Positions 4,294 through 62,903 of a stretch of DNA of 64,000 nt are shown here, one piece after another. The stretch is from the NCBI GenBank assembly GCA_040399645.1, contig JBBARR010000001.1:91559-155558 (forward strand). The letters are read 5' to 3'. Each line of letters begins with the position of its first letter. Position 1 is the stretch's first letter. The notes under the pieces are model-generated. The model was not told the DNA's origin and did not search any database. It worked only from the letters and a program-made list of their open reading frames with translations. Source of the stretch: Caulobacteraceae bacterium (GTDB taxonomy: Bacteria; Pseudomonadota; Alphaproteobacteria; Caulobacterales; Caulobacteraceae). A program made the position numbers and the translations under genes.

Positions 4294-4307
4294 TCGCGGC
4301 GCCAGCC

Positions 4308-7945
<3,638 letters not shown>

Positions 7946-14040: not shown

Positions 14041-14362
14041 GGCGCGGTTCCGGTCTTGGCGTGGTCTCGATTGGGGTGGTAACCCCGCAGATCTTAAGGC
14101 TGCCCGACAATAGTCAGCCTCTGACCCGCTTGTTTTGGTTAGTTTCAAGCAAGACCGTGCCCCTAGCGGGGCTCTATCTCATTTGTCCGGTCAATACCGT
14201 GGGACAAGCTTACGAGGCTGGCAAGAGGCTTTTTTGCAACGCAACACGAGAAATTGTGCGCCGCGGTCGTGTTCCCCAATCAAGACAGTGGATTGCCGCA
14301 GCCTCGGTGAATGATAAAGTCCGGACAATTACTCTGCAGCCCACCGACTAGGATGATCGAAC

Positions 14363-16363: not shown

Positions 16364-16448
16364 CCGCTCAGACTTGACCTGCTGCCAGCCTGTCGCCAAG
16401 TTGGCTTCAACACCTGTTTGAAACCAAAAACCGCATTAGGGAAACGCC

Positions 16449-17213: not shown

Positions 17214-17221
17214 TGGGAAAG

Positions 17222-17251
17222 GGCCTAGCCGCGTTCGCGCGCGGTTAGGCC
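17222..17251. terminator. Hairpin between convergent SDR and DUF2237 genes (bidirectional terminator candidate)
   Basis: GGCCTAGCCGCG (17222-17233) pairs with CGCGGTTAGGCC (17240-17251), a 12-bp stem with one mismatch. There is no clear U tract. Confidence 0.45.
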
Positions 17252-17628
17252 GACACCGCATAGGCCTTGAGCACATCCAAGGTAACGATTGCCAAGGTCT
17301 CTTCGTGAGTGGCCTCGAGCACCACGCCGGGTGCCGCGCCAGCATCGAGCGCCTCTTTCCAGCGCGGCGCGCACAGACACCAGCGGTCACCGGGCCTAAG
17401 GCCGGGAAAATGTAGGTCGGGACGCGGCGTTGACAGATCATTGCCCGCTCTTCGGCTGAAGGCCAGAAACTCTGCGGTCATGACGGCGCATACCGTATGC
17501 AGTCCCAGATCATCGGGCCCGGTCTCGCAACAGCCATTGCGGAAAAACCCAGTTACGGGTGCGTTGGAACAGAGCAAAAGCTCTTGCCCTAAAACGTTCA
17601 GTGCGGTCTCGTCATAACGGGTGGTCAT
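17245..17628 (-). CDS. DUF2237 family protein
   Basis: 127 aa. The NVLGQELLLCSNAPVTGFFRNGCCETGPDDLGLHTVCAVMTAEFL pattern is typical of DUF2237. Confidence 0.85.
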   Translation of the reverse strand: MTTRYDETALNVLGQELLLCSNAPVTGFFRNGCCETGPDDLGLHTVCAVMTAEFLAFSRRAGNDLSTPRPDLHFPGLRPGDRWCLCAPRWKEALDAGAAPGVVLEATHEETLAIVTLDVLKAYAVSA

Positions 17629-17703
17629 GGTCCTATCTTAGAGGCTAAGAGGCGTTTGATAAAAGCCTGATAATGTCCCCATTCGATCCAAGGGAACCGA
17701 TCC

Positions 17704-18600
17704 ATGTCCAAGACCGCCCAGACCGCCCAGACCGCCAAGCCGCGCCGTAGCGCCCTCTACATGCCCGCCTCTAATGCCAAGGCCATCGACAAGGCCCGTA
17801 ACCTGCCCTGTGATGTGGTGATCTTGGATCTCGAAGATGCGGTGGCGCCGGACTCTAAGGCTCTGGCCCGCGAACAGGCGGTAGCGGCGATCAAGGCGGG
17901 TGGCTTTGGTCGGCGAGAGTTGGTTATTCGCTGTAATGGTTTGGATACCCCTTGGGGGGCTGACGATCTGGCGGCGGCGGCGGCGGCCGGTCCGGACGCT
18001 ATCTTGGTGCCCAAGGTCAATGATGCCGCTGATGTCGCGGCCTATAATAGCGCCATCGCAGCAGCTCCGGCCTCAACCCAGCTTTGGGCCATGATCGAGA
18101 CCTGCCGGTGCCTTTTCAACCTGCCCCAGATCGCTGAGGCCAGCACCTCCAGCCGCATGACCACCTGGGTGATGGGCACCAATGATTTGGCGAAGGAGAT
18201 GCGCGCCCGTCAGACGCCTGATCGCTCACCCTTCCATGCCGCCCTTTCTCTGTCAGTCGCAGCGGCGCGCTTCTATGGCCTCACTATTTTAGACGGCGTC
18301 TATAATGACATCGATAATGAAGAGGGCCTCCGCGCCATCTGCGAACAGGGCGTCGATTTTGGCTTTGACGGTAAGACCCTGATCCATCCCAAGCAGGTCG
18401 AGATCTGCAACCGCGTCTTTTCGCCGTCCGAGGCTGAGGTCGCTTGGGCCAAGGCTGTGATCGCCGCCTTCGCTCTGCCGGAAAATCAGGGCAAAGGCGC
18501 GATCCGCGTCGAGGGCCGCATGGCTGAATTGCTGCATCTGGTGCAGGCTGAGAGCCTTGTCGACGTGGCGGCCGCGATCGCCGAAACGGCGGCCGCCTAG
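17704..18600 (+). CDS. HpcH/HpaI aldolase / citrate lyase beta (CitE)-like protein, malyl-CoA lyase/thioesterase family
   Basis: 298 aa. RSALYMPASNAKAIDKARNLPCDVVILDLEDAVAPDSK is the CitE-family N-terminus. Length and N-terminus resemble the short Mcl2 (malyl-CoA thioesterase) type more than the 318-aa Mcl1 type, but this cannot be settled by eye. Confidence 0.85.
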   Translation: MSKTAQTAQTAKPRRSALYMPASNAKAIDKARNLPCDVVILDLEDAVAPDSKALAREQAVAAIKAGGFGRRELVIRCNGLDTPWGADDLAAAAAAGPDAILVPKVNDAADVAAYNSAIAAAPASTQLWAMIETCRCLFNLPQIAEASTSSRMTTWVMGTNDLAKEMRARQTPDRSPFHAALSLSVAAARFYGLTILDGVYNDIDNEEGLRAICEQGVDFGFDGKTLIHPKQVEICNRVFSPSEAEVAWAKAVIAAFALPENQGKGAIRVEGRMAELLHLVQAESLVDVAAAIAETAAA

Positions 18601-18602
18601 CG

Positions 18603-19121
18603 ATGGTTCAGCGGTGGGCAGCAATGGTTCTGACCGGGGCGGCCCTGCTGGCCATGCCTGCGCCTCTTTGCGCTCAGCCCGTTCTTACTGCACCTGATCC
18701 AGAGCCTGTCACCATCGATCAGGTGGCCAAGACCCCCGGCGGACCCTTAACTCCTCAGGAGGAGGCCTTCGACCAACAGGTGCGCCAGTCCTATTCGGCG
18801 GTGGACCAAAAGCAGGGTCCCCTCGAAGGGGCTTGGCGGCTATTGGCGGCGGACGGCAAGCCTCTGTTCGGCTTTCAGTTGGCGGATCTGGCCAAGAGTG
18901 GCGTTGAGGGGGCTTGGCGCGACCTTCGGCGCCAAGCGGCCCTCGGCGGCTCTGGTTTCATCGCCGAGATCTATCGCGATGACGATAGTCTGCGGATGAA
19001 TTTCTATGAGCGCGATGGTGAGGCGGCGACAGAAATCGTTCTGACGCCGTCAGCTTACGGCGAATGGTCCGGCAATCTCTGGGACGATAATCGTAAGATC
19101 CCGGTGACTATGAAGCGCTGA
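18603..19121 (+). CDS. Hypothetical exported protein
   Basis: It has a signal-peptide-like N-terminus (MVLTGAALLAMPAPLCAQP) and GC3-rich codons, but I recognise no family. Confidence 0.6.
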   Translation: MVQRWAAMVLTGAALLAMPAPLCAQPVLTAPDPEPVTIDQVAKTPGGPLTPQEEAFDQQVRQSYSAVDQKQGPLEGAWRLLAADGKPLFGFQLADLAKSGVEGAWRDLRRQAALGGSGFIAEIYRDDDSLRMNFYERDGEAATEIVLTPSAYGEWSGNLWDDNRKIPVTMKR

Positions 19122-19551
19122 AAAAGCCAACCTCTTCAAAGACGGCGAGGGCGCCAGCGCGGGCCTTGTCGAGCAATTCAAGGCTATAGGGCGTAGCGGG
19201 GCTGTGGCCCCACACGGGACCCGGCCAGGCCGCATCATCGCTGCGGCGGCTGACGACATGGACATGGAGTTGGGCGGTGACATTGCCCAAGGCCCCGACA
19301 TTGAGCTTTTCGGTCGGCAGTCCGAGGGCATCGCTGATCGCGCGGACGGCTTGGCTGACCAAGACAATCTCTTCCATCAAGACCAAACGCTCGGCCATCG
19401 ACAGGTCTTCAAGCTCGCGCATGTCCGCGCGGCGCGGAATCAGCACGATCCAGCCATAACGGGCATCCAACTGCAGGCGTGCTTCGCAAAGGGTCAGGTC
19501 GCAGAGCAGGTCAGACGTCGCGTCAAAGGCTGGATCAAGCACGAAGGTCAT
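19108..19551 (-). CDS. HIT family hydrolase
   Basis: The histidine triad is present as QLHVHVVSR. The gene overlaps the 3' end of the convergent gene by 14 nt. Confidence 0.85.
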   Translation of the reverse strand: MTFVLDPAFDATSDLLCDLTLCEARLQLDARYGWIVLIPRRADMRELEDLSMAERLVLMEEIVLVSQAVRAISDALGLPTEKLNVGALGNVTAQLHVHVVSRRSDDAAWPGPVWGHSPATPYSLELLDKARAGALAVFEEVGFFSAS

Positions 19552-19642
19552 CAGAATCTCTCTTAAAGCGCTGCAAACCTATCTCGGATCACAGCCGAGT
19601 TCGCAATCGCTTTAAGTGGAAATTTAGCCGTACTTAAAGGAA

Positions 19643-20698
19643 TTAGCGTTTGCGCGGCACGGCGGCCCAATAATCGAAATCCAGAATGACTTCAGAGGGA
19701 TATTTCCCGTCGCTGTCCTGATCCGGGAAATCGCTACAGGGCCGGTCCTTGGTCGCCACGAGACGCAGGCGCAAGGCCCCAATATCGCTGCGGCCGGGGA
19801 TTTCGGTCCGGTCGAGCACCTCGCTCCAGGCAAAGACGGTGGCGCCCGCAAAATAGGGATTCACGTGCCGTCCGCCATTGATGCCAAGGATCAGACCCGC
19901 ATTTTCCAACCCATTGAAGGACAGGGCCTTGGCGGTCGAGATGACCACGCCGCCATAGACAAGCCGTCGGCCCGTCGGGTCCTTGGCACGCTCATATTGA
20001 TTGAAATGGACCTTGGCCGTGTTCTGATAGAGCCGCGTGGCCATCTGGTGCTCGGCTTCTTCAATGGCCATGCCGTCGACATGGTCGATCTTCTCGCCGA
20101 TCTCATAGTCCTCAAAGGCATGGGCCGAGCCCGCCAGAGCAAAATCATACTGGGCAAAGGACAGGCCCGCTGGGATCACCAGATCGCTAGCGGAGACTGA
20201 GGCGGGCAGGGTGGGGACCGCTTCTTGAGCGATGGGGGCGGTCTCGTCGCGCTTGCGAACCATGACCCAGCGCACATAGGTCAAGACCTCTGTGCCATGC
20301 TGATTGACGCCGGTGGTGCGCACATAGACCACGCCGGTCTTGCGATTGGAGTTCTCTTTCAGGCCAATGACCTCAGAGCTGGACGAGACCGTATCGCCTG
20401 CATGGACCGGGGCAAGGAAACGGCCATCGGCATAGCCCAGATTGGCCACCGCATTGAGCGACACATCTGGCACCGTCTTGCCGAATACCATGTGGAACAC
20501 CACCAAAGGATCGACAGGGCTTTGGCCGAGGCCACAGCTCTGCGCAAAGCTATCGGCGCTGAACAGGGCAAAGCGAGGACCGTAGAAGGCGGTATAGAGG
20601 GCGACATCCCCCGCCGTGATGGTGCGCGGCGTGGCGTGGGCCAGAACCTCACCCAAACGGAAATCTTCGAAATAACGGCCAGGGTTGGTCTTGGACAT
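19643..20698 (-). CDS. mch: Mesaconyl-CoA hydratase (2-methylfumaryl-CoA hydratase), MaoC double hot-dog
   Basis: 351 aa beginning NPGRYFEDFRLGEVLAHATPRTITAGDVALYTAFYG. Length and N-terminus are typical of Mch. Confidence 0.88.
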   Translation of the reverse strand: MSKTNPGRYFEDFRLGEVLAHATPRTITAGDVALYTAFYGPRFALFSADSFAQSCGLGQSPVDPLVVFHMVFGKTVPDVSLNAVANLGYADGRFLAPVHAGDTVSSSSEVIGLKENSNRKTGVVYVRTTGVNQHGTEVLTYVRWVMVRKRDETAPIAQEAVPTLPASVSASDLVIPAGLSFAQYDFALAGSAHAFEDYEIGEKIDHVDGMAIEEAEHQMATRLYQNTAKVHFNQYERAKDPTGRRLVYGGVVISTAKALSFNGLENAGLILGINGGRHVNPYFAGATVFAWSEVLDRTEIPGRSDIGALRLRLVATKDRPCSDFPDQDSDGKYPSEVILDFDYWAAVPRKR

Positions 20699-30930: not shown

Positions 30931-31596
30931 ATGACACAGATCCGCCCCATCATCGCTCCGTCTCTGCTGGCCGCTGATTTTGCCAAGCTTGGGGAAGAGG
31001 CGCGCGCCATCGAGGCCGCCGGTGCCGATTGGCTGCATATTGATGTCATGGACGGGCATTTTGTGCCGAACATCACGCTGGGCCCAGATATCGTCAAAGC
31101 CTTGCGTCCGCATGTCAAAATACCGTTTGATGTCCATCTGATGATCGCGCCGGCTGACCCCTATCTGGAAGCCTTCCGCGAGGCGGGGGCCGATATCATC
31201 AGCGTCCACCCCGAATCGGGCCCGCATCTGAACCGCACGCTCAAGCGCATTCGCCAGCTCGGTGCGAAGGCGGGCGTGGTCTTTAATCCCTCTACCCCGC
31301 CAGAATCCATCGAGTGGATGATGGATGAGGTCGATTTGATTCTGGTCATGTCGATCAATCCGGGCTTTGGTGGACAGAGCTTCATGACCTCACAGTTGAA
31401 GAAGATTGAGCGTCTGAGGGCCATGATTGATGCGACGGGCCGCGACATTCCCCTCGAGGTGGATGGTGGCGTGACCCCGCAAACGGCTCCCCTTTGCATC
31501 GCGGCTGGGGCGACGGCCCTTGTTGCCGGTTCGGCAGTCTTCCGTGGCGGGCCTTCGGCCTATGCCGACAATATTCGCGCCCTTAGGGGCGTTTGA
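30931..31596 (+). CDS. rpe: Ribulose-phosphate 3-epimerase
   Basis: It has IAPSLLAADFAKLGEE...HIDVMDGHFVPN...MSINPGFGGQ. Confidence 0.96.
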   Translation: MTQIRPIIAPSLLAADFAKLGEEARAIEAAGADWLHIDVMDGHFVPNITLGPDIVKALRPHVKIPFDVHLMIAPADPYLEAFREAGADIISVHPESGPHLNRTLKRIRQLGAKAGVVFNPSTPPESIEWMMDEVDLILVMSINPGFGGQSFMTSQLKKIERLRAMIDATGRDIPLEVDGGVTPQTAPLCIAAGATALVAGSAVFRGGPSAYADNIRALRGV

Positions 31597-31675
31597 GACC
31601 GGCCCCGCTGTGGCCCTGTTGCCCACACGTCGTCCCAAGACCGCAAAGCCGCGGCCCCTCAAGATTCTGCTCCAG

Positions 31676-33337
31676 ATGGTGGCGCAGACGGCAACCGATC
31701 TGGTCAGTTCCGACTGGTACGGCACCCCGTTCCATCTTTGGGGTCTGGGTGGACCGAAGGTTCAGGGCGTCGCAGCCGCGCCGCGCGATCTGCGCCCGCC
31801 GCGCAGTGGGATGGCCGCAGCCTTGCTTGAAGGTCGGTTTGTTCTGGCCGGAGAGACCCTTTCGGTCGGGCCCAGCGGCGATCCTTGGGATAAGCCCTGC
31901 CCAAGCCGAGCCTTTGCGGTCGAGCTACATCGCTTTTCTTGGCTTAATGCTCTGATGGAAGAGCGCCCCGTTGGGCTGGACTATGGCTTGCAGCTCTGCC
32001 TGGATTGGCGCCGCGCCTATGGCCTTTGGAACAGCTTCTCATGGGGCGGCGAGGTTCTTGACCGAAGGGTGTTTAACCTTGCCTGTCATCTCAGGCACTT
32101 GGCCGGTGTGGCTTCGGAACTTGAGACGCAAGCTCTTTGCAACAGTATGGCGCGCCAGGCCCGCCACCTTCTGTGCCTGTCCCAAAGGGACCCCAGAGCG
32201 GCGGAACGCGCCGCCGCCGCGTCCATCGCTGGAACCGCTCTGAGCGGTCCGGTCGGTGACCGATTGATGGCCAAGGGCCTGACGATCCTTACCGCTCTGT
32301 TGCCCCGGCGCGTCTTGAGTGATGGTGGCCACATTACCCGCTCCCCGGAGGCCACCCTAGAACTGCTCTATGATCTCCTAACCCTTGATGATGCCCTGTC
32401 GCAGCGCGGATTGGCAGCGCCGGTCGAAATATCAAGAGCCATTGATCGACTTACTGCGGCGGTCCGGTTCTTCACCTTGCCAGATGGTCGGCTCGCCTGT
32501 TTCCACGGCGGCGAAGAAAGCCATCCAGACTATGTGGCGGCAGCGCGGGCCCATGAGGATCGTGATCCAAATGCGCGAGAGCCGCAGCAGGCGCTGCACT
32601 CCGGCTACCAGCGTATGTCGGGTCGGACCTTGACGGTCATGATGGATGTAGGGGCTCCAGCGCGTGATGCCATGAGCCAAACCGCGACGGCGCAGCCCTT
32701 GGCCATTGAGGTTCTGACTGGCCGCGAACGGCTCATTACCAATAGCGGCTGGAGCCCGCGCCTGCCACAGGGCCAAGCTTGGCGCTTGAGTGACGGGGGA
32801 TCGAGCGCCTGTCTGGGCGAAGGGTCTGCGGGTTGGCCCTTAAGGGGCGCGGCCGCCAATCGGTTGGGTGTTCGGCTGGACGGGGCCGCTTTGACGGTTG
32901 ATTGCAGCCGCAGCGAAACCGACGCAGGGGTTTGGCTTGAGGCGGTTCATGATGGCTGGGTCCATAGTTACGGCCTGCTACACGAGCGTCGGCTGTTCTT
33001 AGATGCGCGCCTTGATGAAATGCGCGGCGAGGACGTCTTTCCTTTAGCACCGCGTAGATCCCTATCGCGGCAGGTTGAGGTGGGGGTCTATTTTCACCTT
33101 CACCCTCAAGTTCGCGCCACCTTGGCCCGCGATCGACGCAGTGTTTTGCTGATGGGGCCGTCCAACAATGGATGGTGGTTGCGCAACGATGCGGCCAGTG
33201 TGACGATCGAGCCTAGTTTTCACTTTCTGGACGGACGGCCGAGGCGCTGTATGAAGGTTGTTCTCCACAGTCCACTGACCCGCCAAGGCCGCACGCGCAT
33301 TCGCTGGAAATTGGCGGCTGCGGAGCCCTCAATATGA
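31676..33337 (+). CDS. Heparinase II/III-like family protein
   Basis: WYGTPFH...LLEGRFVLAGETL...HRFSWLNAL resembles the conserved alphaproteobacterial heparinase II/III-like protein. The start is uncertain: ATG 31676, or GTG 31610 just after the rpe stop. The tracked start at 31520 would overlap rpe by 77 nt. Confidence 0.72.
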   Translation: MVAQTATDLVSSDWYGTPFHLWGLGGPKVQGVAAAPRDLRPPRSGMAAALLEGRFVLAGETLSVGPSGDPWDKPCPSRAFAVELHRFSWLNALMEERPVGLDYGLQLCLDWRRAYGLWNSFSWGGEVLDRRVFNLACHLRHLAGVASELETQALCNSMARQARHLLCLSQRDPRAAERAAAASIAGTALSGPVGDRLMAKGLTILTALLPRRVLSDGGHITRSPEATLELLYDLLTLDDALSQRGLAAPVEISRAIDRLTAAVRFFTLPDGRLACFHGGEESHPDYVAAARAHEDRDPNAREPQQALHSGYQRMSGRTLTVMMDVGAPARDAMSQTATAQPLAIEVLTGRERLITNSGWSPRLPQGQAWRLSDGGSSACLGEGSAGWPLRGAAANRLGVRLDGAALTVDCSRSETDAGVWLEAVHDGWVHSYGLLHERRLFLDARLDEMRGEDVFPLAPRRSLSRQVEVGVYFHLHPQVRATLARDRRSVLLMGPSNNGWWLRNDAASVTIEPSFHFLDGRPRRCMKVVLHSPLTRQGRTRIRWKLAAAEPSI

Positions 33338-35220
33338 GTGGGTCTCGGCCAGATCCTTTTCAAAAGATCCCCCTTTGGTCTGTCCGTCAGATCGCTCTGC
33401 TGATCTATATCCATGATCTGCTGATGGCGGCGGCAGCGATGGCGGTGGTACTTTTGGGCCGCTATCAGTTTGAGACCAAGGCCACGCCCTATGGCATGAT
33501 CTGGGAGTCGACCTTGGCCTTTGCCTTGGTCAGCGCCCTTGTCTTTCCGTTTTTCAAACTCCATCGCGGGGTTTGGCGGTTCACGGCACTGAATGACATT
33601 TGGCGCATTGCACAGGCCGCTGCCGCGACCAGTATCTTGGTTCTGCCCTTGCTGTTTTTAGTCAATAGGCTGGTTGATTTTCCGCGCTCAGCGCCGGTTC
33701 TGGTCATTGGTTTGGCCGCCCTGTTCATGAGTTTGGGGCGGGTCCTCGCCAGTGGATTGGCCAGCGGAGATGTTCGCGCCGCCCTGTCGCTTGAAGATCG
33801 CTCGGCACCGGCCATGGTGCTGGTTGGTACAGAACAGGATGCTGCAGATTTTCTTCGAGAGAACCGCCGCGCCGTGCTGCCGATGCGTATTGCCGGCCTT
33901 GTCACCCCCGACAACCGAGGCGCGGGCCGCACCATTGATGGTCGTCCCGTTTTAGGACCGCTGAGCCGGCTGACCTTTATTCTGCGTGGCCTGTCTGAGC
34001 GCGATGTCCAATTGCCTCAGGTCGTCGTTGTAGATCCAAGGCCCAGCCGCGCCTTGCTGGAGCAGATCGTAGCGGCTGCGGGTGAGGCAGGGGTTCGGGT
34101 AGCAAGGGCACGATCGATGGCCGGCGGAGCAGCCGGGCTTGCCCCGGTTCAGGCCGCAGACCTTCTTGGCCGTCCGCCCAGAGTGCTTGATCCGATCCGA
34201 GCCCTCGATTTGGTGGCGGGTAAGCGGGTCTTAGTGACAGGGGCGGGTGGGACCATTGGGTCTGAACTGACCCGGCAGATTCTCAACTATGGCCCAGAGC
34301 GAGTCATCCTGTTTGATGCTTCGGAATATAATCTCTACGCCATCGATCGCGAACTCACCGAATCGGGCATTGAGGTGCCATGGAGCGTGGAGCTTGGTGA
34401 CGTGCGCGATCAGGGCCGCTTGAGCGAACTGTTCGCCCGCGAACGGCCACAGGTCGTTGTCCATGCCGCTGCCCTCAAACATGTCCCGTTGATGGAGGCC
34501 AATCCGTCTGAAGCGGTTATGACCAATTTGGGCGGGGCGGTGCAGGTGGCGCGGCTCGCGCGGGACCTGTCCGAAGCCTTTGTGTTCATTTCCACCGACA
34601 AGGCGGTCAATCCCACCAACGTCATGGGCGCAACCAAGCGGGCGGCTGAACGGGCTATTCAGGCCCTGATGGTCGGTGGCAAGGCTAAGGCCGCCATTGT
34701 CCGGTTTGGTAATGTTTTGGGCTCTGCGGGCTCGGTGGTGCCCCTCTTTGAACGCCAGATCGCAGCCGGCGGACCCGTGACCCTGACCCACCCCGACATG
34801 GTCCGCTATTTCATGACCGTCCAGGAGGCTGCCGGTCTTGTGCTGCAGGCGGCGGCCTTGCCGCAGGATCCCGGTTCGGCGGCGGTCTATGTGCTGGATA
34901 TGGGAGAGCCGGTTCGGATTGAAGATTTGGCCCGGCGCATGATCCAGCTCCACGGTCTTCGGCCCGACAAGGATATTGTTTTGGCCCATACAGGTCTGCG
35001 GCCTGGCGAAAAACTCTATGAAGAGGTTTTCTACGCTGCCGAAGATGTCCGTCAGACGCTTGCGGATGGTGTGATGGCAGCCCGTACGGACCCCGCCCAA
35101 TGGTCTGACTTGCAAGAGGCCTTTCACAGTTTGATGGCGGCGGCCCAATCACGCAATGAGCAGGCGGTTATCGAGGGTCTGATGGGCCTGGAGCCGGGGT
35201 TCTGTCCCGATCCGCGATAG
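33334..35220 (+). CDS. Membrane-bound polysaccharide biosynthesis protein, CapD/PglF/WbpM-like NDP-sugar 4,6-dehydratase
   Basis: It has N-terminal TM helices and then a Rossmann domain (VLVTGAGGTIGSEL, STDKAVNPTNVMGATKR). An ATGA overlap couples it to the upstream gene. Confidence 0.9.
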   Translation: MSGSRPDPFQKIPLWSVRQIALLIYIHDLLMAAAAMAVVLLGRYQFETKATPYGMIWESTLAFALVSALVFPFFKLHRGVWRFTALNDIWRIAQAAAATSILVLPLLFLVNRLVDFPRSAPVLVIGLAALFMSLGRVLASGLASGDVRAALSLEDRSAPAMVLVGTEQDAADFLRENRRAVLPMRIAGLVTPDNRGAGRTIDGRPVLGPLSRLTFILRGLSERDVQLPQVVVVDPRPSRALLEQIVAAAGEAGVRVARARSMAGGAAGLAPVQAADLLGRPPRVLDPIRALDLVAGKRVLVTGAGGTIGSELTRQILNYGPERVILFDASEYNLYAIDRELTESGIEVPWSVELGDVRDQGRLSELFARERPQVVVHAAALKHVPLMEANPSEAVMTNLGGAVQVARLARDLSEAFVFISTDKAVNPTNVMGATKRAAERAIQALMVGGKAKAAIVRFGNVLGSAGSVVPLFERQIAAGGPVTLTHPDMVRYFMTVQEAAGLVLQAAALPQDPGSAAVYVLDMGEPVRIEDLARRMIQLHGLRPDKDIVLAHTGLRPGEKLYEEVFYAAEDVRQTLADGVMAARTDPAQWSDLQEAFHSLMAAAQSRNEQAVIEGLMGLEPGFCPDPR

Positions 35221-37069: not shown

Positions 37070-37909
37070 ATGGCGCTATACAGCGTTAATACGAACCGCG
37101 AGGCTATGATTGCGCTTCAGAATCTGAACGTAACAGGCGCGGAACTTGGTACCACACAAATGCGCATCTCGACCGGGCGTAAGGTCGATAGTGCGAAAGA
37201 TAATGGCTCCACTTGGGCGATTGCCCAATCGATGCGGGCCACCTCTACTTCTCTCAATGCCGTGAAAGATTCTCTACAGCGGGGGCAGTCGACACTCGAT
37301 GTTGCTCTGGCTGCGGGTTCGTCCGTTTCGGACCTGCTCTTGCAGATGAAGGAAAAGGCGCTCGGTGCCTCGGACACCACGCTTGATACTACGAGTCGCT
37401 CTGCCCTGAATGAAGACTTCAAGGCTCTGCGCGATCAGCTGGCCAAGACTGTTTCCAATGCCGACTTCAACGGCACCAACATGATCAAAACCGGCGGCAG
37501 CAATATTATGGCACTCGCCAATGCGACGGGAACCAGCAAGTTAACGGTAGTTGCGCAGTCTTTGGGGTTGGGCAGTGCAAACCTGACCGGTATTTTAAGT
37601 ACGTCGAGCATAGGGTCTAACACAGCGTCTACAGCCCAAGCTATGATTGCGACCGTCAATACTGCCATTGGCAAGGTTAGTACTGCCTTAGCTAAGATGG
37701 GTACAGGCTCTAAGGCGCTAGATCTGCATCTGTCCTTCATTATGAAGCTACAGGACACCTTAGATAATGGCGTGGGCAACCTCGTCGATGCCGATCTGGC
37801 GAAGGAAAGTGCCAAGCTCCAGTCGCTGCAAACGCGGCAACAGCTGGGTGTTCAGGCCCTGTCGATTGCCAATCAGTCTACCTCCGCCCTACTCGGCCTG
37901 TTCCGATAG
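37070..37909 (+). CDS. Flagellin (short Caulobacter-type, 279 aa)
   Basis: It runs MALYSVNTNREAMIALQNLN...RISTGRKVDSAKDNGSTWAIAQ...SLQRGQSTLDVALAAG...LQSLQTRQQLGVQALSIANQ. An AAGGAG Shine-Dalgarno lies upstream. Confidence 0.95.
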   Translation: MALYSVNTNREAMIALQNLNVTGAELGTTQMRISTGRKVDSAKDNGSTWAIAQSMRATSTSLNAVKDSLQRGQSTLDVALAAGSSVSDLLLQMKEKALGASDTTLDTTSRSALNEDFKALRDQLAKTVSNADFNGTNMIKTGGSNIMALANATGTSKLTVVAQSLGLGSANLTGILSTSSIGSNTASTAQAMIATVNTAIGKVSTALAKMGTGSKALDLHLSFIMKLQDTLDNGVGNLVDADLAKESAKLQSLQTRQQLGVQALSIANQSTSALLGLFR

Positions 37910-37977: not shown

Positions 37978-38790
37978 TTAGAACCAGCCGGCGTCTCGCA
38001 GGCCCGCAGCATAGCTGCGGCTAACCGGAACCCTTGTCCCATCCTTCAGGGTCAGGGTGGCGCGGCCGTCACCGCGCGCCGCTTCGATAATTCCTGCCTT
38101 GGCCACCCACCAAGAGCGGTGCGTTCGCGCGCCTTCAATACCCGCTAGCTCGCCAATGGCATCAGCCAAGCGCATCAGGATCAGGTCTGATCCTCGATCG
38201 GTGTGCAGGCGCAGATAATGGTCTTCGGCCTCGACGGCCAGCAGGTTTGCGCCCTTAAGCTTGGCTGGAAAGCGGCCCATAAACCGAACCGTCTCGGTAC
38301 GCCCCTCTGTCGAAGAGGTGGTCTGTTGGCGCTGTTCTGTTGCATAGTTCAGGGCCGTCATTGCGATGGTGATGATCAGGACCTGCGGCAGGTAAGTCAA
38401 AAGCGTCACCGTTTCGCCGGGACTTGGAAACAGCACCTTAGACGCGACATAGACCATTGCGGTGATCGGCCCTGTGATGAGGGTGACGATTAGCAGACCT
38501 TGAAGCCAAGGGCGTGTTTCGAGGATTTCAAACCTTTGGATCAGACTGATGGTTAAGGCTCCCATCGCGCTTCCACCGATCATGAGCCCCGCCCAATAGA
38601 CCAGACGCAGGGCAACTGGAGCGCCATCCGTGCCAAAGGCTCCGCAGAAGCAGAGAAAGAGGGCCGCGATGGCCCCAATGCCCAAGCCCCTGGCATTTCG
38701 CATCAACAACCTTGCCGTTGGCGAAGCGCCAATGGTGGTGCCTTCCAGTTGGCGAAGAGGCGGTGGTGATTGGCGAAGATCTGGCTGCAT
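37978..38790 (-). CDS. Membrane-anchored LytTR-domain DNA-binding protein (no receiver domain)
   Basis: About four N-terminal TM helices are followed by a C-terminal LytTR domain (LLAVEAEDHYLRLHTDRGSDLILMRLADAI...THRSWWV...LKDGTRVPVSRSY). The ATG at 38790 is preferred, since the 39000 start would overlap the divergent gene. An ATG at 38703 is also possible. Confidence 0.85.
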   Translation of the reverse strand: MQPDLRQSPPPLRQLEGTTIGASPTARLLMRNARGLGIGAIAALFLCFCGAFGTDGAPVALRLVYWAGLMIGGSAMGALTISLIQRFEILETRPWLQGLLIVTLITGPITAMVYVASKVLFPSPGETVTLLTYLPQVLIITIAMTALNYATEQRQQTTSSTEGRTETVRFMGRFPAKLKGANLLAVEAEDHYLRLHTDRGSDLILMRLADAIGELAGIEGARTHRSWWVAKAGIIEAARGDGRATLTLKDGTRVPVSRSYAAGLRDAGWF

Positions 38791-38845
38791 CGGCGGATCG
38801 GGCCTCTTAAGGTGGTAGCGACAGATTGACGAAAGAGGACCTAAC

Positions 38846-39358
38846 ATGATCGTTGAAGCGGGCAAGCGCCGCATACCACCCCTTTTCTTGAGCCTGGCCC
38901 TATTGGCCTTGTTTGTGGGCGCGGCGGCCCTAATCGGCTTGCCCAACTCCATGGGGCTGCACCGTCCAAGGCTGGACCTGTTGGTGGAGCAACCCCTCAA
39001 GGTTCAGGTCCACATTGGTGCCGCCCTCTTGGCCTTTAGCTTAGGGCTCGTGCTCTTTGCCGCGCCCAAGGGCACCTTGCCCCACCGGACCTTGGGGTGG
39101 ATTTGGGTGGTGTTCATGACCACCGTGGCGGCATCATCCCTGTTTATGACGGGCCTAAATGGGAATGCCTATTCCTGGATCCACATGCTGTCGGGCTATG
39201 TCCTGATCTCCTTGCCCGCCGGGGTCATTGCCGCGCGCCGCCATAAGGTTCTGGTGCATCAACGCACCATGACCGCCATGTTTCTCGGCGGCATGGTCAT
39301 TGCGGGAGCCTTCACCTTTTTTCCGGGCCGGTTAATGTGGCGCGTGATAATGGGATAG
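38846..39358 (+). CDS. Small polytopic membrane protein (possibly DUF2306-like)
   Basis: 170 aa with about four TM helices and conserved-looking His/Arg positions (LPHRTLGW, RRHKVLVHQRTM). It has an AGAGGA Shine-Dalgarno. The family assignment is tentative. Confidence 0.72.
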   Translation: MIVEAGKRRIPPLFLSLALLALFVGAAALIGLPNSMGLHRPRLDLLVEQPLKVQVHIGAALLAFSLGLVLFAAPKGTLPHRTLGWIWVVFMTTVAASSLFMTGLNGNAYSWIHMLSGYVLISLPAGVIAARRHKVLVHQRTMTAMFLGGMVIAGAFTFFPGRLMWRVIMG

Positions 39359-39432: not shown

Positions 39433-42400
39433 ATGGCCAGTTCCATATTTCACGACCCGTCAGGTCAGCGCGCGCGTCGGGCCGGACTGGTTCTGGTCCT
39501 TGTTGTGTCTGGCATCTTAGCGGTCATTGCCGCCTTCTTCATGACCCTCGCGACAGCGCCACGCTTGCCAGACATGCAACTTCGTGACCCACGGGCCCTG
39601 TCGGCGCTGCACCGGGAGAATGTCCATAGTCTGAAGACCGAGCCCGGTTGGACCCGTGTGCCCCATCCGCACATGGCCACGCGCGGCGGTCAGGCCAAGC
39701 CCCTGACGGTTGGATTTTATGTCAGTTGGGATGAGCTTTCACGCCATTCCCTGACCGACCACCTGGCCCAACTGGATGTGGTAGCCCCGCAATGGATCGC
39801 ATTGAAAGACGCCAAGGGGGCGATAACCCTGACCGAGGACCCTCAGGCGACGGCCATGATCGCGGCTGCAGCCCATCGCCCGTCAGTTTTGCCCGTTTTG
39901 TTCAATGCCAAGAATATGGCCTTCAACGGCGAGATGGCCGACCGGCTCTTGGCCGATCCTGTGGCGCGCAAACGGATGGTTGCGCAGTTGGTCGATCTGG
40001 CCAAGCGCCGTGGCTATGGCGGCTATGTTTTCGATCTTGAGAACCTGTCGACTGCTGGCCTTAAAGCCTATCCCAGCTTTGTCGCCCAAGCCGTTGCGGC
40101 ATTGCGTCCGTTAGGCCGAGAGGTCTGGGTCACCGCCCCAATGGACGATCCCGAATGGCCCCTCGCCAAGCTGCAAAAGGCCTCCGATAGTCTGATGCTG
40201 ATGGCTTATGACGAGCATTGGCTGACCGGTGATCCTGGGCCTGTGGCCGGGCAGGACTGGTATCAGTCCCATATGGCCGAGAGCTTTAGGGTTCTTGATC
40301 CCGCCAAAACCATGATGATCCTTGGGGCCTATGGTTATGACTGGACCCTCGCCTCTGGTACCAGCAAGGGCCGGGCTGATGTGCTGACCTTCCATGAGGC
40401 ATCCGTTCTAGCCCGCGACGCGGGCGCGGATGTGCGCATGGATCATGCCTCGCTCAATCCGGGCTTTGCCTATCAAGATGACCAAAAGCAGCAGCATGCG
40501 GTCTGGTTCTTGGATGCCCCGACCCTTTTCAACCAAATCAAGGTCGCCGACGCTTGGCATCCTCGGGCCTACGGGGTTTGGCGGCTCGGTTCTGAGGACC
40601 CTGGTATTTGGCCGCTCTTAGGCAAGCCCTATGGGACCGCGTCGTCAGTGGGTCTGACCAAAATGGGGCCGGGTGAGGGCGTTGATTTTGATGGCACGGG
40701 TGAGGTTTTGTATGTTGCCTCGACGCCGTCGGCAGGCAAGCGGTCCTTCACGGTTGATCCCACCCGCGGCCTGATCGTCGACCAGCATTATGAGGTATTG
40801 CCATCATCCTATGAGATTAAACGCTATGGGGCCCATCCGGGGCTTGTCGCCTTGACCTTTGACGATGGTCCAGATCCCCGCTGGACACCGGATATTCTCG
40901 ATATCCTGAAAGAAAAGAAGGCGCCAGCGACCTTCTTTATCATTGGCGAGAACATGCAAACCTGGCCGGATCTGGTGCAGCGCGAGCTGGATGAGGGCCA
41001 TATGGTGGGCAGTCACACCTATACCCATCCCAATATTGGCGAGATTTCTGCCGTTCAGACGACCCTCGAACTCAATGTCACCCAGCGCCTGTTCGAAACG
41101 CTGACCGGCCGATCCATGCGTCTGTTCCGCCCGCCCTTTTTTGGCGACGCCGAGCCTTCAACGCCGCGTGAGGTGGCTCCGATTCTAGCGGCTCAAAAAC
41201 AGGGCTATCTGACGGTCGGCCTTCGGATTGACCCCGATGATTGGCAAAAGCCTGATGCCACGCTGATCGTTGAGCGGACCTTGGCGCGGCTAGCGGATGA
41301 AAATCCAGAGACGGGCGGGCAGGTGGTCTTACTGCACGATTCTGGCGGCAATCGGGAGCACACGGTCGCGGCCCTTCCCAAGCTGATCGATGCCCTTCGC
41401 GCCCATGGTTATCGGCTGGTCACGGTCTCAGAGTTGGCAGGACTGTCGCCAAGGCTAGCCATGCCGCCGACCACGCGCGGTGACCTTGATATAACGCTAG
41501 ATCGTTGGGGGTTTGGATTTTTTCGCATCGTAAATGCGTTTCTGCGCGTTCTATTCATTACCGCCATCGCCCTTGGTGTGGCGCGCTTGGCCTTCTTGGC
41601 GAGCCTTTCTTTGGTGCATCGGTTTGCGGTCGAGGTACGCACGCCGCCAGAGCTCGACCCAACCACAGGGCCGATGGTCACGGTCTTGATTCCTTGTTTC
41701 AACGAGGAAAAGGTCATTGTGAATTCCGTGGGTCAAATCCTCGCCTCCAACTGGAGCCAGATGGAGGTGATCGTCCTCGATGACGGATCTAAAGATCGCA
41801 CGGCGGCTTTGGTCATGGAGGCCTTTAAGGACCATCCGCAGGTTCGCCTGATGAGCTTTGAGAATGGTGGAAAGGCGCTGGCCTTGAACCGAGGCCTCGT
41901 CGAGGCCAAGGGCGATATTATCGTGGCGCTGGATGCCGATACGCTCTTTGCGCCTGAAGCCTTAGGTCGTCTCGCACGCTGGTTTGTCGATCCGCAGATT
42001 GGCGCGGTGGCGGGCAATGCCTTGGTCGGCAATCGGCTCAACCTGATTACCCGTTGGCAGGCGCTAGAATATGTCACAGCGCAAAATCTTGAACGACGCG
42101 CGCTGGCGGCGCTGGGTGCCGTGACGGTGGTGCCGGGCGCAGTTGGGGCGTGGCGTAAGTCGGCCCTGATTGATCTGGGTGGCTATCCGCCCAACACGCT
42201 GGCTGAAGATCAGGATCTGACCATCGCCGTTCAGCGTGCCGGTTGGGACGTCGCTTTTGATCCCGACGCGCGGGCCTATACAGAGGCCCCCGATACGGTG
42301 GCGGGCCTGCTCAAGCAGCGGTTTCGCTGGTCCTTCGGCACCTTGCAATGTCTATGGAAACATCGCGACGGCCTATTTAGCTTCAAGTCTCCGGTTCTGG

Positions 42401-42810
42401 GCTTCATCGCCCTGCCGCAGATCTGGTTGTTTCAGATTGTCTTGGCCGTAGTGGCCCCATTGGTCGATCTGGCTGTGGTCTGGGGCTTGGTCAGCGCAAT
42501 CTTGGCCCACATTGCCCATCCGATAGAATGGTCACCGGATGAGACAACCAATATCTTGCTCTATTGGGGCGTCTTTGTGCTGATTGACCTGATGGCCGGA
42601 GTGATGGGGATGGCGATGGAGCGTGAAGCGCCTTGGTCTGACCTGCCTTGGCTACCGCTTCAGCGGTTTGGCTATCGTCAATTGATGTATTCGGTCGTGG
42701 TCCGGGCAGTGATCACAGCCGTGCGCGGCCCACAGGTTGGTTGGGGTAAGCTGGAACGGCGCGGAACCGCCTCAGCACCCCTATTTGGGCCTAAGTCTTC
42801 AGGGGGTTGA
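39433..42810 (+). CDS. Multidomain GH18-like / CE4 polysaccharide deacetylase / family-2 processive glycosyltransferase membrane protein
   Basis: 1125 aa with an N-terminal TM anchor. The GH18-like region runs LTVGFYVSWD...GGYVFDLE. The CE4 motifs are TFDDG, HTYTH, RLFRPPFF and VLLHD. The GT2 motifs are LIPCFNEE, DDGS, DAD, AEDQD and QRFRW. TM helices lie between CE4 and GT2 and at the C-terminus. Confidence 0.92.
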   Translation: MASSIFHDPSGQRARRAGLVLVLVVSGILAVIAAFFMTLATAPRLPDMQLRDPRALSALHRENVHSLKTEPGWTRVPHPHMATRGGQAKPLTVGFYVSWDELSRHSLTDHLAQLDVVAPQWIALKDAKGAITLTEDPQATAMIAAAAHRPSVLPVLFNAKNMAFNGEMADRLLADPVARKRMVAQLVDLAKRRGYGGYVFDLENLSTAGLKAYPSFVAQAVAALRPLGREVWVTAPMDDPEWPLAKLQKASDSLMLMAYDEHWLTGDPGPVAGQDWYQSHMAESFRVLDPAKTMMILGAYGYDWTLASGTSKGRADVLTFHEASVLARDAGADVRMDHASLNPGFAYQDDQKQQHAVWFLDAPTLFNQIKVADAWHPRAYGVWRLGSEDPGIWPLLGKPYGTASSVGLTKMGPGEGVDFDGTGEVLYVASTPSAGKRSFTVDPTRGLIVDQHYEVLPSSYEIKRYGAHPGLVALTFDDGPDPRWTPDILDILKEKKAPATFFIIGENMQTWPDLVQRELDEGHMVGSHTYTHPNIGEISAVQTTLELNVTQRLFETLTGRSMRLFRPPFFGDAEPSTPREVAPILAAQKQGYLTVGLRIDPDDWQKPDATLIVERTLARLADENPETGGQVVLLHDSGGNREHTVAALPKLIDALRAHGYRLVTVSELAGLSPRLAMPPTTRGDLDITLDRWGFGFFRIVNAFLRVLFITAIALGVARLAFLASLSLVHRFAVEVRTPPELDPTTGPMVTVLIPCFNEEKVIVNSVGQILASNWSQMEVIVLDDGSKDRTAALVMEAFKDHPQVRLMSFENGGKALALNRGLVEAKGDIIVALDADTLFAPEALGRLARWFVDPQIGAVAGNALVGNRLNLITRWQALEYVTAQNLERRALAALGAVTVVPGAVGAWRKSALIDLGGYPPNTLAEDQDLTIAVQRAGWDVAFDPDARAYTEAPDTVAGLLKQRFRWSFGTLQCLWKHRDGLFSFKSPVLGFIALPQIWLFQIVLAVVAPLVDLAVVWGLVSAILAHIAHPIEWSPDETTNILLYWGVFVLIDLMAGVMGMAMEREAPWSDLPWLPLQRFGYRQLMYSVVVRAVITAVRGPQVGWGKLERRGTASAPLFGPKSSGG

Positions 42811-43075: not shown

Positions 43076-44245
43076 ATGAACATTCACGAGCATCAAGCCA
43101 AGGCCGTCCTCAAAGAGTTCGGCGTTCCTGTTCCACGCGGCTTTGCCGCCTTTACGGTCGATGAGGCCGTTAAGGGTGCTGAAGTACTCGGCGGCCCTGT
43201 CTGGGTCGTCAAGGCTCAGATCCACGCCGGTGGCCGTGGAAAGGGCGGCGGCGTTAAGGTCGTCAAGTCGATCGACGCTGTTCGCGAAGAGGCGACCCGC
43301 ATGCTGGGCATGACGCTGGTCACCCATCAGACCGGCCCCGCTGGCCGCTTAGTTCGCCGCCTCTATGTCGAAGAGGGCGCGGCCATTGCTCGCGAGCTTT
43401 ATCTGTCCTTGCTGGTTGACCGGGTCACGTCTCGCGTGTCCGTCGTCGCCTCGACCGAGGGCGGCATGGACATTGAGGAAGTGGCAGCCCACACGCCTGA
43501 AAAGATCATGGCCTTCTCGATCGACCCTGCGACCGGTGTTTTCCCGCACCATGCCCGGACCTTAGCATCGTCCTTGGGCCTGACCGGTGCAGCAGCCAAA
43601 CAGATCCAAACCCTCCTGCCTTCGCTCTATAAGGCCTTTGTCGAGCGCGACATGGAGATGTTGGAAATCAATCCTCTGATCGTCACTGCCGACGACCAAC
43701 TCCGCGTCCTCGATGCAAAGATCTCGTTCGACAGCAACGCCCTCTATCGTCAACCGGAAATGCGCGAGCTACGCGACATGACCGAAGAGGACGAAAAAGA
43801 GATCGAGGCCTCCAAGTACGATTTGTCCTATATCACGCTCGACGGCGAAATTGGCTGTATGGTCAATGGTGCGGGTCTGGCCATGGCGACCATGGACATT
43901 ATTAAGCTCTATGGGGCTGAGCCTGCCAACTTCCTCGACGTTGGTGGCGGCGCTTCTAAGGAAAAGGTTACGGCAGCCTTCAAGATCATCACCTCCGATC
44001 CGGCGGTGAAGGGGATCTTGGTTAATATCTTCGGCGGCATCATGCGCTGTGACATTATCGCCGAAGGCGTGGTGGCTGCGGTCAAGGAAGTCGGCCTGAA
44101 GGTGCCTCTGGTGGTTCGTTTAGAGGGCACCAATGTCGCCCTCGGCAAGCAGATTATCAATGAGAGCGGCCTAAACGTCATCGCAGCGAACGACCTGTCG
44201 GACGCCGCAGAAAAAATCGTCAAGGCCGTGCGGGCCGGAAACTGA
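43076..44245 (+). CDS. sucC: Succinyl-CoA synthetase beta subunit (ADP-forming)
   Basis: It has [22 protein letters not shown]...[17 protein letters not shown]. Confidence 0.97.
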
Positions 44246-61427: not shown

Positions 61428-61730
61428 TGGTGCGCTTTGGTGAGGCTTGTGGTTGAAGAGGTTGATGGTCTGGTCACCTAGCGGCTGCTCAATCCTCTGA
61501 CTCTTTTGTGACTGTTGACCAAGAGCTCGCAACCAGAGCGAAGACTATTGGTGTGGGAACGGTTCCGTTGCTTTGGGCTGCTGCTCAGGAAACTGGAACA
61601 GAGCCGACCAAACTATTGCACCCCCGCGACAAAATCCTGCTTGCGCGCCGAAGCGAAAAAGGGTCTATCGGCCTCGGGCCACGCCTCCCCAACGGGGCGC
61701 TGCTCATCTGTAAGGATGGGAAAGACAGAC

Positions 61731-62903
61731 ATGACAAACCTCGCTAAGCCAGCGATGCGCCCTGCGCGTCCTGAATTTTCTTCCGGACCCTGTGCCAAAC
61801 GGCCGGGATGGAACCTCGACCAACTCTCGAGCGCCGTGCTCGGTCGGTCACATCGTTCAAAACTTGGAAAAGGTCGTCTCAAGGACGCCATTGATCGCAC
61901 CCGTGCGGTTCTGGGCGTGCCTCATGACTATCTGATAGGCATCCTGCCAGCCTCGGATACGGGCGCGGTCGAAGCGGCCATGTGGTCGATGCTAGGCGCA
62001 CGCCCGGTGCAGATGCTGGCCTTTGAAAGCTTCGGCAAGGACTGGGTGACCGATGTGGTCAAGCAGTTGAAGCTGAAGGACACAGAGGTTCTCGACGCCG
62101 ATTACGGCCTTTTGCCCGACCTGAGCAAGGTTCGCGCGGATGCCGATCTGGTCTTTACCTGGAACGGCACGACCTCGGGTGTGCGGGTTCCTAATGCTGA
62201 TTTCATTTCTGCGGACCGCGAAGGCATCACCATCTGTGACGCCACCTCGGCGGCCTTTGCCCAAGATCTCGACTGGGCCAAGCTCGATGTGACCACCTTC
62301 TCCTGGCAAAAGGTTCTGGGCGGAGAGGGCGCTCACGGGATGCTGATCCTATCGCCGCGCGCCGTCGCTCGCCTCGAAAGCTACAGCCCGGCTTGGCCGA
62401 TGCCGAAGATCTTCCGCCTGACCAAGGGCGGCAAGGTCAATGCCGAGATCTTTGAAGGCGCGACCATCAATACCCCCTCCATGCTCTGCGTTGAGGACTA
62501 TCTCGACGCCCTGACATGGTCGGAAAAGATCGGTGGCCTGACTGAGCTTCGTCGCCGCGCCGATGCCAATCTCGGCGTCATTGCCGATTGGGTGGCCAAG
62601 ACCGGTTGGGTCGATTTCCTGCCCGTCGATCCTGCGACCCGCTCCAACACCTCGGTCTGTCTGAAGGTGGTGGATGCCCGCGTCGCGGCGCTCGATGCCA
62701 GTGCGCAGGCTGATTTCGCTAAGAAGTTGGCTAGCTTGCTGGAAAAGGAAGGCGTGGCTCTGGATATTGGCGCCTATCGCGACGCCCCTCCAGGTCTGCG
62801 CATCTGGTGCGGGGCCACGGTTGAGACCTCTGATCTGGACGCCCTCACCCCCTGGCTTGACTGGGCCTTTGCTAGCGTCGCTGACGAGCTTCTGTCCGCC
62901 TAA
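61731..62903 (+). CDS. serC: Phosphoserine aminotransferase
   Basis: The sequence from the ATG at 61731 ([27 protein letters not shown]) matches the ~390-aa alphaproteobacterial SerC type. The 72-codon upstream extension in the track has poor coding character. Confidence 0.9.

Follow-up and report, generated by a model that had tools for sequence, protein, structure and literature searches.

One Caulobacteraceae gene encodes a predicted membrane protein that combines GH18, CE4 deacetylase and processive GT2 synthase modules

The stretch examined here, referred to as the window, comprises 64,000 nucleotides from a Caulobacteraceae bacterium (NCBI GenBank assembly GCA_040399645.1, contig JBBARR010000001.1, positions 91,559 to 155,558 of the forward strand). 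At 39433-42810 of its plus strand lies one open reading frame (ORF) that runs from an ATG start over 1125 amino acids to a stop codon, and in which a glycoside hydrolase family 18 (GH18) module, a carbohydrate esterase family 4 (CE4) deacetylase, a transmembrane (TM) helix and a glycosyltransferase family 2 (GT2) synthase succeed one another, as seen by Pfam, homologues and AlphaFold2. With an identical protein recorded at NCBI and the same three Pfam modules recurring in over 120 full-length homologues of 64-78% identity, the ORF is genuine and not due to chance. The surrounding window is a housekeeping region with dnaA-dnaN-recF-gyrB, candidate ethylmalonyl-CoA pathway genes, purH, flagellin, sucCDAB-lpd and ATP synthase genes. 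Directly upstream of the fusion gene, one gene encodes a membrane protein with a LytTR domain and another a DUF2306 protein. The downstream neighbour is sucC (43076-44245), as the first-pass annotation of this DNA had stated, and is followed by sucD, sucA, sucB and lpd. The same synteny, from LytTR-DUF2306 through the fusion gene to sucCDA, was also found in a Caulobacter genome (L003).

All three modules score above the curated Pfam cut-offs, namely Glyco_hydro_18 at residues 93-383 (39.1 against 29.6 bits), Polysacc_deac_1 at residues 469-569 (111.2 against 23.1 bits) and Glyco_tranf_2_3 at residues 747-969 (126.2 against 27 bits). The modules, their order and the motif positions given in the first-pass annotation could thus all be reproduced. 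Upon recomputation, FDLE lies at 40030-40041, TFDDG at 40855-40869, HTYTH at 41014-41028, RLFRPPFF at 41119-41142, VLLHD at 41326-41340, DDGS at 41779-41790, DAD at 41932-41940, AEDQD at 42202-42216 and QRFRW at 42316-42330.

The protein starts with a cytoplasmic peptide (residues 1-16, MASSIFHDPSGQRARR; 39433-39480), delimited by family conservation, charge and the structure model, which leads into TM1 (residues ~17-40; 39481-39552), an N-in/C-out anchor recognised by hydropathy and modelled as a helix from residue 12 to 40. Beyond a periplasmic linker of low model confidence (residues 41-89; 39553-39699; predicted local distance difference test (pLDDT) score below 50 at 53-72 and 80-84) follows the GH18 (beta/alpha)8 domain of the YdhD/SleL/YaaH type (residues 90-385; 39700-40587), supported by Pfam, sequence matches in the PDB and Foldseek. 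Between GH18 and CE4 sits a small all-beta linker domain (residues ~415-467; 40675-40833) that is defined by high-pLDDT strands at 417-466, shows conserved G421, G423, G435, R437 and P457, and obtained no Pfam assignment. The CE4/NodB-homology deacetylase (residues 468-670; 40834-41442), assigned through Pfam (111 bits), Foldseek and its invariant residues, is connected to the synthase by TM2 (41482-41640). Hydropathy and both AlphaFold2 models present TM2 as one long helix of residues 684-736 with its hydrophobic core at ~700-727; the hydrophobic stretch 692-728 falls inside this single helix, which also holds a nearly invariant R718. The GT-A catalytic domain of the family-2 synthase (residues 747-955; 41671-42297), with DDGS, DAD and AEDQD, was identified by Pfam, TIGR03937 and identity to PgaC, and is succeeded by an interface helix bearing QRFRW (residues 956-981; 42298-42375; conservation, and a helix at 956-976 in the model). 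Hydropathy, AlphaFold2 and Foldseek then delineate a C-terminal membrane region (residues 987-1098; 42391-42726) consisting of TM3 (~989-1028), a short acidic periplasmic loop, TM4 (~1036-1062) and an Arg-rich amphipathic helix (1073-1098), after which a cytoplasmic tail with invariant G1099, W1104 and R1109 (42727-42807; conservation and charge) closes the protein. All of these features are encoded on the plus strand.

Structure prediction with AlphaFold2 was run initially on 28 close homologues (pLDDT 71, predicted template modelling (pTM) score 0.45), a run that was superseded by one with 101 diverse family members reaching a pLDDT of 92.5 and a pTM of 0.84. The latter values suggest that the modules are packed in a defined inter-domain arrangement. 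Comparison of the model with known structures by Foldseek backed all three folds. The GH18 part matched 5jh8 (TMt 0.86), YdhD (0.80) and SleL, while the CE4 part matched Bc1960 (TMt 0.85, 34% identity), 7fbw (0.93) and PdaC. The synthase part retrieved hyaluronan synthases (HAS), BcsA and PcManGT from the PDB, with 440-480 columns aligned to HAS and the cellulose synthase BcsA. The C-terminal helices are modelled at 956-976, 987-1028, 1036-1062 and 1073-1098 with pLDDT above 90, and by this structural criterion the helices following QxxRW could form a translocation channel.

The first-pass annotation demanded that the TM segments separating CE4 from GT2 be odd in number, and a single helix was indeed found there. 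Averaged over the 101 sequences, hydropathy revealed four conserved hydrophobic segments with one peak between CE4 and GT2. In the same alignment, the mean number of Lys plus Arg residues per sequence amounts to 3.8 in the N-terminal tail, 4.8 after TM2, 2.6 before TM3 and at least 3.3 after TM4, and loop 1029-1037 is acidic (0.2 Lys plus Arg against 1.7 Asp plus Glu). Because of this family-wide hydropathy and charge bias, the predicted topology places both termini and the GT2 domain on the cytoplasmic side, and GH18 together with CE4 in the periplasm. Residues 987-1028 may form either a single long helix or a hairpin, and the sidedness of the catalytic domains is the same either way.

The CE4 module displays all five of its motifs (TFDDG 475-479, HTYTH 528-532, RPPF 566-569, DPDDW 600-604 and LLHD 633-636), and D477, D478, H528, H532, R566 and H635 are invariant in 151 family representatives (described below). 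Its best NCBIfam models are PdaB, PgdA and NodB (118 bits), each scoring below its own equivalog cut-off. The GT2 module in turn contains DDGS (783-786), DAD (834-836), AEDQD (924-928) and QRFRW (962-966), and thereby the complete GT-A set of D, DxD, (T)ED and QxxRW that defines a processive GT2 synthase of the BcsA/HAS/chitin synthase/PgaC class. Among the 151 representatives, D784, D834, D836, D926, Q962, R963, R965 and W966 are invariant or show one exception; within QxxRW, Q962, R963 and W966 never vary and R965 is kept in 150 of 151. Its best NCBIfam model is TIGR03937 PgaC_IcaA (194.6 bits, versus 112.6 for NodC, TIGR04242), and Escherichia coli PgaC is 31% identical over 289 amino acids (E 7e-46). 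Pfam additionally returned a weak Chitin_synth_2 match.

Membership of the GH18 module in its family follows from both its Pfam score and its (beta/alpha)8 fold. By sequence, the nearest solved structures are Bacillus subtilis YdhD (3e-20), SleL (2e-18), a Chromobacterium 'chitinase' and YaaH. The strand that reads DxxDxDxE in the canonical motif here reads GGYVFDLE and retains only the final D and E (D201-x-E203); M257-x-Y259-D260 and the barrel Trp (W383) are also present. Since the YdhD and SleL relatives likewise keep only the final D-x-E (IDFE/FDFE versus FDLE), such a shortened motif appears to be usual in this clade rather than a mark of degeneration. YdhD, SleL and YaaH thus share fold and reduced motif with the module, but they are soluble spore proteins, the SleL and YaaH entries being spore cortex-lytic or germination enzymes, whereas the module studied here shares a polypeptide with a polysaccharide synthase, in bacteria that do not sporulate. 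Among 28 close relatives (63-77% identity to the window protein), D201, E203, D260 and W383 are invariant and Y259 is present in at least 90%, which argues for selection on GH18 catalysis in this lineage.

Across the wider family, most named genomes keep the full GH18 catalytic set, and a strict D-x-E is absent in 48 of 146 cluster representatives. D-x-E and MxYD have decayed jointly in Methylobacterium (L049), Rhodobacterales (L051, L062), Bryocella, Desulfatitalea and an unclassified metagenome-assembled genome (MAG). In all these lineages, with L040 and L042 (both Acidobacteriota) and L047 among the example loci, no catalytic residue of CE4 or GT2 varies; in the Granulicella locus L042, the sole GH18 change is Glu to Gln. 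Judged from these alignments, this looks like repeated conversion of GH18 into a pseudo-enzyme. Because the domain is always kept while its catalysis is dispensable in some lineages, the pattern points to a conserved role in binding or guiding, to which hydrolysis would be added in lineages with an intact motif such as the present one. The 'trimming' that the first-pass annotation had assigned to GH18 consequently is plausible for this lineage, with its intact D-x-E and MxYD, but does not hold as a family-wide requirement.

The conservation also extends to both ends of the protein. Residues 4-16 (SIFHDPSGQRARR; 39442-39480), directly before TM1, follow the pattern P-[VI]-F-[FYH]-D-P-x-G-[RK]-R-(W), with F6 present in 129 of 131 and R13 in 131 of 134 non-gap representatives and with pLDDT values of 82-96 in the 101-sequence model. 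The peptide is kept in Alphaproteobacteria, Acidobacteriota, Gemmatimonadota and Verrucomicrobiota and occurs in Bacteroidota as the variant QIFQT..RW; no VFxDPxGRR-type peptide was evident in a Streptomyces MatB-like sequence. Towards the C terminus, R1078, G1099, W1104 and R1109 are invariant and R1082 nearly so. Together with the N-terminal peptide, these five residues may make up a site on the cytoplasmic side for regulation or for a ligand.

The closest characterised relative of the protein is MatB (SCO2962/SLI_3306), an enzyme of biofilm formation in Streptomyces, in which an extracellular CE4 domain and an intracellular GT2 domain are linked by one predicted TM helix (PMC5972031, PMC4391728). 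The matAB genes are genetically required for a dispersin-B-sensitive, mAb-F598-reactive layer of poly-N-acetylglucosamine (PNAG), and the MatB product is dispersin-B-sensitive, chitinase-insensitive and calcofluor-negative (PMC5972031). In our genome scan, actinobacterial loci matched residues ~472-1116 only. The comparison was made with the MatB-like ORF of Streptomyces sp. NPDC093252 (L074, 7731-9923, 730 amino acids) and not with SCO2962 itself; this ORF is 40% identical over 657 amino acids (E 1e-134), and the alignment is colinear from TFDDG over the TM helix and GT2 through the C-terminal helices (window residues 472-1116). The ORF is translationally coupled to an upstream 486-amino-acid ORF without Pfam domain, a pair that reproduces the published matA-matB arrangement (PMC4391728). 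MatB and the window protein therefore have in common an extracytoplasmic CE4, a single TM helix, a PgaC-like cytoplasmic GT2 and C-terminal TM helices in colinear homology, but MatB has no GH18 module and resides in a monoderm rather than a diderm host. As a separate candidate, MatA was considered as a cryptic GH18 homologue, which would have made the present protein a MatA-MatB fusion. This was rejected, with a BLASTP E value of 4.7 and MatA-like ORFs devoid of Pfam domains.

The first-pass annotation had further described these activities as divided among different proteins in the characterised systems known to it. For CE4 and GT2 this had already been contradicted by MatB, and it is the added N-terminal GH18 that goes beyond the described fusions. 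A 2020 operon survey moreover reported GT/deacetylase fusions in Gram-negatives at loci without pgaA and pgaD, on computational grounds only (PMC7112194).

Compared with E. coli PgaABCD and staphylococcal IcaADBC, the protein shares the PgaC/IcaA-type GT2 and a scheme in which the synthase is followed by CE4 and by a TIM-barrel glycosidase-like domain that would work on the chain in the periplasm, but it has no PgaD/IcaD and no PgaA porin and unites everything in one inner-membrane chain. Its periplasmic half showed no similarity to PgaB beyond the TFDDG motif, and its hydrolase lies N-terminal to CE4, whereas GH153 lies C-terminal to CE4 in PgaB. Rhizobial NodC and NodB resemble it as a GT2 N-acetylglucosamine (GlcNAc) polymerase and a CE4 deacetylase acting in sequence (113 and 118 bits, respectively). 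They differ in that these scores stay far below the equivalog cut-offs (NodB 240, NodC 550), that NodB is a separate, cytoplasmic protein, and that no GH18 partner exists. The hydrolase of PelA, another system with a related layout, belongs to a different family, GH166. Pseudomonas PelA places a hydrolase before a CE4-like deacetylase in one polypeptide, both acting on a nascent N-acetylhexosamine (HexNAc) polymer, but it is a soluble protein of the periplasm that depends on a distinct synthase complex and on PelB/C for export, and it handles an alpha-1,4 GalNAc polymer (PMC12022489).

The three-module architecture, whose spread the first-pass annotation had left to be surveyed, turned out not to be rare but to typify a large family over many phyla, including monoderm Bacillota. 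A profile search of 1.84 billion cluster representatives yielded 2805 proteins at E <=1e-30; the best 150 of these 2805 (representatives of 50%-identity clusters) are almost all full-length at 33-60% identity, and 146 of the 151 representatives formed by these 150 plus the window protein cover all three modules. Among species-representative genomes, the form occurs in Caulobacterales, Sphingomonadales, Methylobacterium, Rhodobacterales, Dyella, Competibacteraceae and Desulfobacterota, in many Acidobacteriota, Gemmatimonadota, Verrucomicrobiota and Bacteroidota, in Bacillota (Anoxybacillus, Neobacillus) and in a Parcubacteria MAG. The 'C. vibrioides' cluster, which holds other Caulobacter species, contained no entry recognisable as the C. 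crescentus laboratory strains NA1000 or CB15. Megaplasmids of Sphingobium, Novosphingobium, Deinococcus, Bacillus mycoides, Prevotella nigrescens and Sulfitobacter carry copies annotated merely as 'glycosyltransferase'. The plasmid homologues of Bacillus mycoides / B. nitratireducens (H13-H22), Deinococcus (H12) and Prevotella nigrescens (H23) are full-length three-module proteins of 35-43% identity, and the carriers are large plasmids, some of them conjugative, in both monoderms and diderms. Because of this occurrence on large, partly conjugative plasmids of monoderms and diderms, the data suggest that the one-gene system is horizontally mobile.

When the neighbouring ORFs of the window and of 62 related loci (63 in all) were clustered, no partner gene conserved across phyla emerged. 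The sole recurrent neighbour is a GT-C/PMT_2 (ArnT-like) polytopic membrane protein of ~470-640 amino acids at 18 loci, mostly of Acidobacteriota, where it lies just upstream on the opposite strand (divergent; L023, L026, L028, L029, L031-L037, L039, L040, L042, L048, L058 and L061) or downstream on the same strand (L057, 11134-13056). The window, Caulobacter, Sphingomonas and the B. mycoides plasmids all carry the fusion gene as a solitary one, in keeping with a machine without dedicated partner. In agreement with the first-pass annotation, the gene content of the window and tblastn searches revealed no PgaA/PelB-type porin, PgaD/IcaD-type partner or Wza exporter nearby. Specifically, E. coli PgaA, PgaB and PgaD, the MatA-like ORF and the acidobacterial GT-C neighbour had no tblastn match at E <0.1 in the 64-kb window, and the 266-nt gap before sucC contains no membrane-like small ORF and thus no PgaD/IcaD-like candidate. 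The proposed link to holdfast or unipolar polysaccharide, on the other hand, found no support, as the neighbours near the likely oriC are purH, flagellin, LytTR, DUF2306 and sucCDAB without hfs/hfa or Wzx/Wzy linkage, and most family members reside in non-stalked bacteria.

Taken together, we consider it reasonably probable that this single inner-membrane protein is a self-contained synthase-dependent exopolysaccharide machine of the MatB/PgaC-IcaA kind with a PNAG-like product. In such a machine, the cytoplasmic GT2 would polymerise a HexNAc chain, most likely a PNAG-like poly-GlcNAc built from UDP-GlcNAc, a product suggested by the affinity to MatB and PgaC. The chain would be threaded through a channel of the protein's own helices (TM1-TM4 and the interface helices) into the periplasm, and would emerge there under CE4, held at the periplasmic face by TM2, which would remove some of the N-acetyl groups. 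GH18, held by TM1, would then bind the chain and in this lineage probably cleave it, thereby limiting its length or releasing it.

Several findings weigh against this reading. We found no biochemical or genetic study of a three-module member in the open-access literature or bioRxiv. The host is a diderm, yet no outer-membrane route is encoded nearby in the window; the same issue extends to the family as a whole, which is found in monoderms too. MatB needs its translationally coupled membrane protein MatA, whereas the window has no MatA match and the upstream ORF is DUF2306-like. As the GT2 scores fall below the equivalog cut-offs of both PgaC_IcaA (194.6 versus 422.3) and NodC (112.6 versus 550), they do not establish the linkage. 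The lack of D-x-E in 48 of 146 representatives implies that GH18 hydrolysis is not essential to the core function of the family, and the GH18 relatives that were matched are chitinases, chitinase-like proteins and spore-cortex peptidoglycan hydrolases. According to a 2018 paper on PgaB (PMC5933820), characterised hydrolases of PNAG were then limited to DspB, from GH20, and the PgaB domain that had just been defined as GH153, so a GH18 cutting a beta-1,6 product would be unprecedented.

Some of these points would be accommodated if the product were beta-1,4-linked, that is, a chitin/chitosan-like polymer or short, partly deacetylated chito-oligosaccharides instead of PNAG. GT2 would then work like NodC or chitin synthase and CE4 like NodB or chitin deacetylase, with GH18 as a true chitinase setting the chain length, and short products could exit by general porins, so that the lack of an outer-membrane exporter would be accounted for. 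The beta-1,4 GlcNAc-containing substrates of the matched GH18 relatives (chitinases, SleL, YdhD), the proximity of CE4 to NodB and to peptidoglycan/chitin deacetylases, the weak Chitin_synth_2 match and the absence of a porin gene nearby are all in line with this, as is the remark of the MatB authors that the MatB CE4 also resembles enzymes acting on 1,4-linked substrates (PMC5972031). However, the PgaC_IcaA score lies well above that of NodC, and MatB, the closest characterised relative, yields a product that dispersin B attacks and chitinase does not (PMC5972031). We therefore regard a beta-1,4 product as possible but unlikely. The spore-cortex relatives with the same reduced D-x-E (YdhD, SleL) might alternatively hint that GH18 does not act on the protein's own product but is a peptidoglycan N-acetylglucosaminidase which opens up or reshapes the sacculus on the spot, allowing passage or attachment of the nascent polymer, and the flexible linker 41-89 after TM1 could let it reach the wall. 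This seems quite improbable to us, since the pTM of 0.84 suggests that GH18 takes a defined position relative to CE4 and the membrane domain rather than being freely tethered, the Pfam scan of the protein showed no LysM or SPOR-type wall-binding domain, and decay of the motif with retention of the domain in many lineages fits polymer binding better than essential lysis.

This decay, joint for D-x-E and MxYD in several lineages with CE4 and GT2 intact, could also mean that GH18 acts even here mainly as a non-catalytic carbohydrate-binding guide that does no trimming and hands the chain to CE4 or holds it at the surface, comparable to chi-lectins and to the first description of the PgaB C-terminal domain. 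Given the invariance of D201, E203, D260 and W383 in the 28 relatives and the full catalytic set in most named genomes, such a role is very improbable for the window protein. Beyond the PNAG-like machine that we favour, a bolder proposal appears doubtful. According to it, the protein would be a partner-free, one-gene exopolysaccharide system of a diderm without dedicated outer-membrane exporter, in which GH18 cuts the nascent, partly deacetylated chain. The module would then be either the first GH18 to act on beta-1,6 PNAG or part of a bacterial chitosan/chito-oligosaccharide synthase whose short products are exported by general porins, and activity would be governed by VFxDPxGRRW and the C-terminal Trp/Arg residues as a new regulatory or ligand element.

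The GH18-CE4-GT2 form thus constitutes a large and widespread family of which MatB is the nearest studied relative. Its novelty is moderate, because MatB already exemplifies a CE4-GT2 fusion and routine database annotations show the domain combination; the added part is the N-terminal GH18. A 2026 preprint on the modular evolution of GH18 makes no mention of GT2 or CE4 fusions. Synthase-dependent systems such as those for cellulose, PNAG, Pel and alginate are normally multi-protein machines, whereas here synthesis, translocation, deacetylation and possibly cleavage would be combined in one chain from a lone gene, in a family that spans soil, water and plant-associated phyla as well as megaplasmids. 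If active, the protein would offer a minimal and portable means of making GlcNAc polymers or oligomers that are partly deacetylated, of relevance to biofilms, adhesion, plant signalling and biotechnology, and a tractable single-protein model for the handover of a nascent chain from a synthase channel to modifying enzymes.

Some further observations concern the neighbouring genes. The LytTR protein (37978-39000, minus strand) and the DUF2306 protein (38846-39358, plus strand) are divergent and overlap by ~150 nt when counted from their first start codons; the true starts of both ORFs probably lie further inside. In Caulobacter L003, the LytTR/DUF2306 pair is likewise adjacent but lies ~7 kb from the fusion gene, and the genes in between (DUF2141, RPE65, TetR, TonB receptor and MFS) are all absent here. 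Upstream of purH and ~2 kb from the flagellin gene (37070-37909), the region 31520-35220 encodes a heparinase II/III-like protein (605 amino acids as called) that overlaps by 4 nt with a CapD/PglF-type membrane 4,6-dehydratase (628 amino acids). These two may form a nucleotide-sugar or glycan-modification pair separate from the fusion protein.

Beside the ATP synthase genes, a 462-amino-acid ORF (61515-62903, plus strand) without Pfam match at E <=1e-4 overlaps a 504-amino-acid ORF on the opposite strand and therefore may not be a genuine gene. The segments 1491-7945 and 12751-20698 hold the dnaA-dnaN-recF-gyrB cluster and candidate ethylmalonyl-CoA pathway genes, the latter encoding a crotonyl-CoA carboxylase/reductase-like alcohol dehydrogenase (ADH), a B12-dependent mutase, an HpcH-family lyase and a mesaconyl-CoA hydratase. 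The dnaA-dnaN-recF-gyrB region is likely the chromosomal origin.

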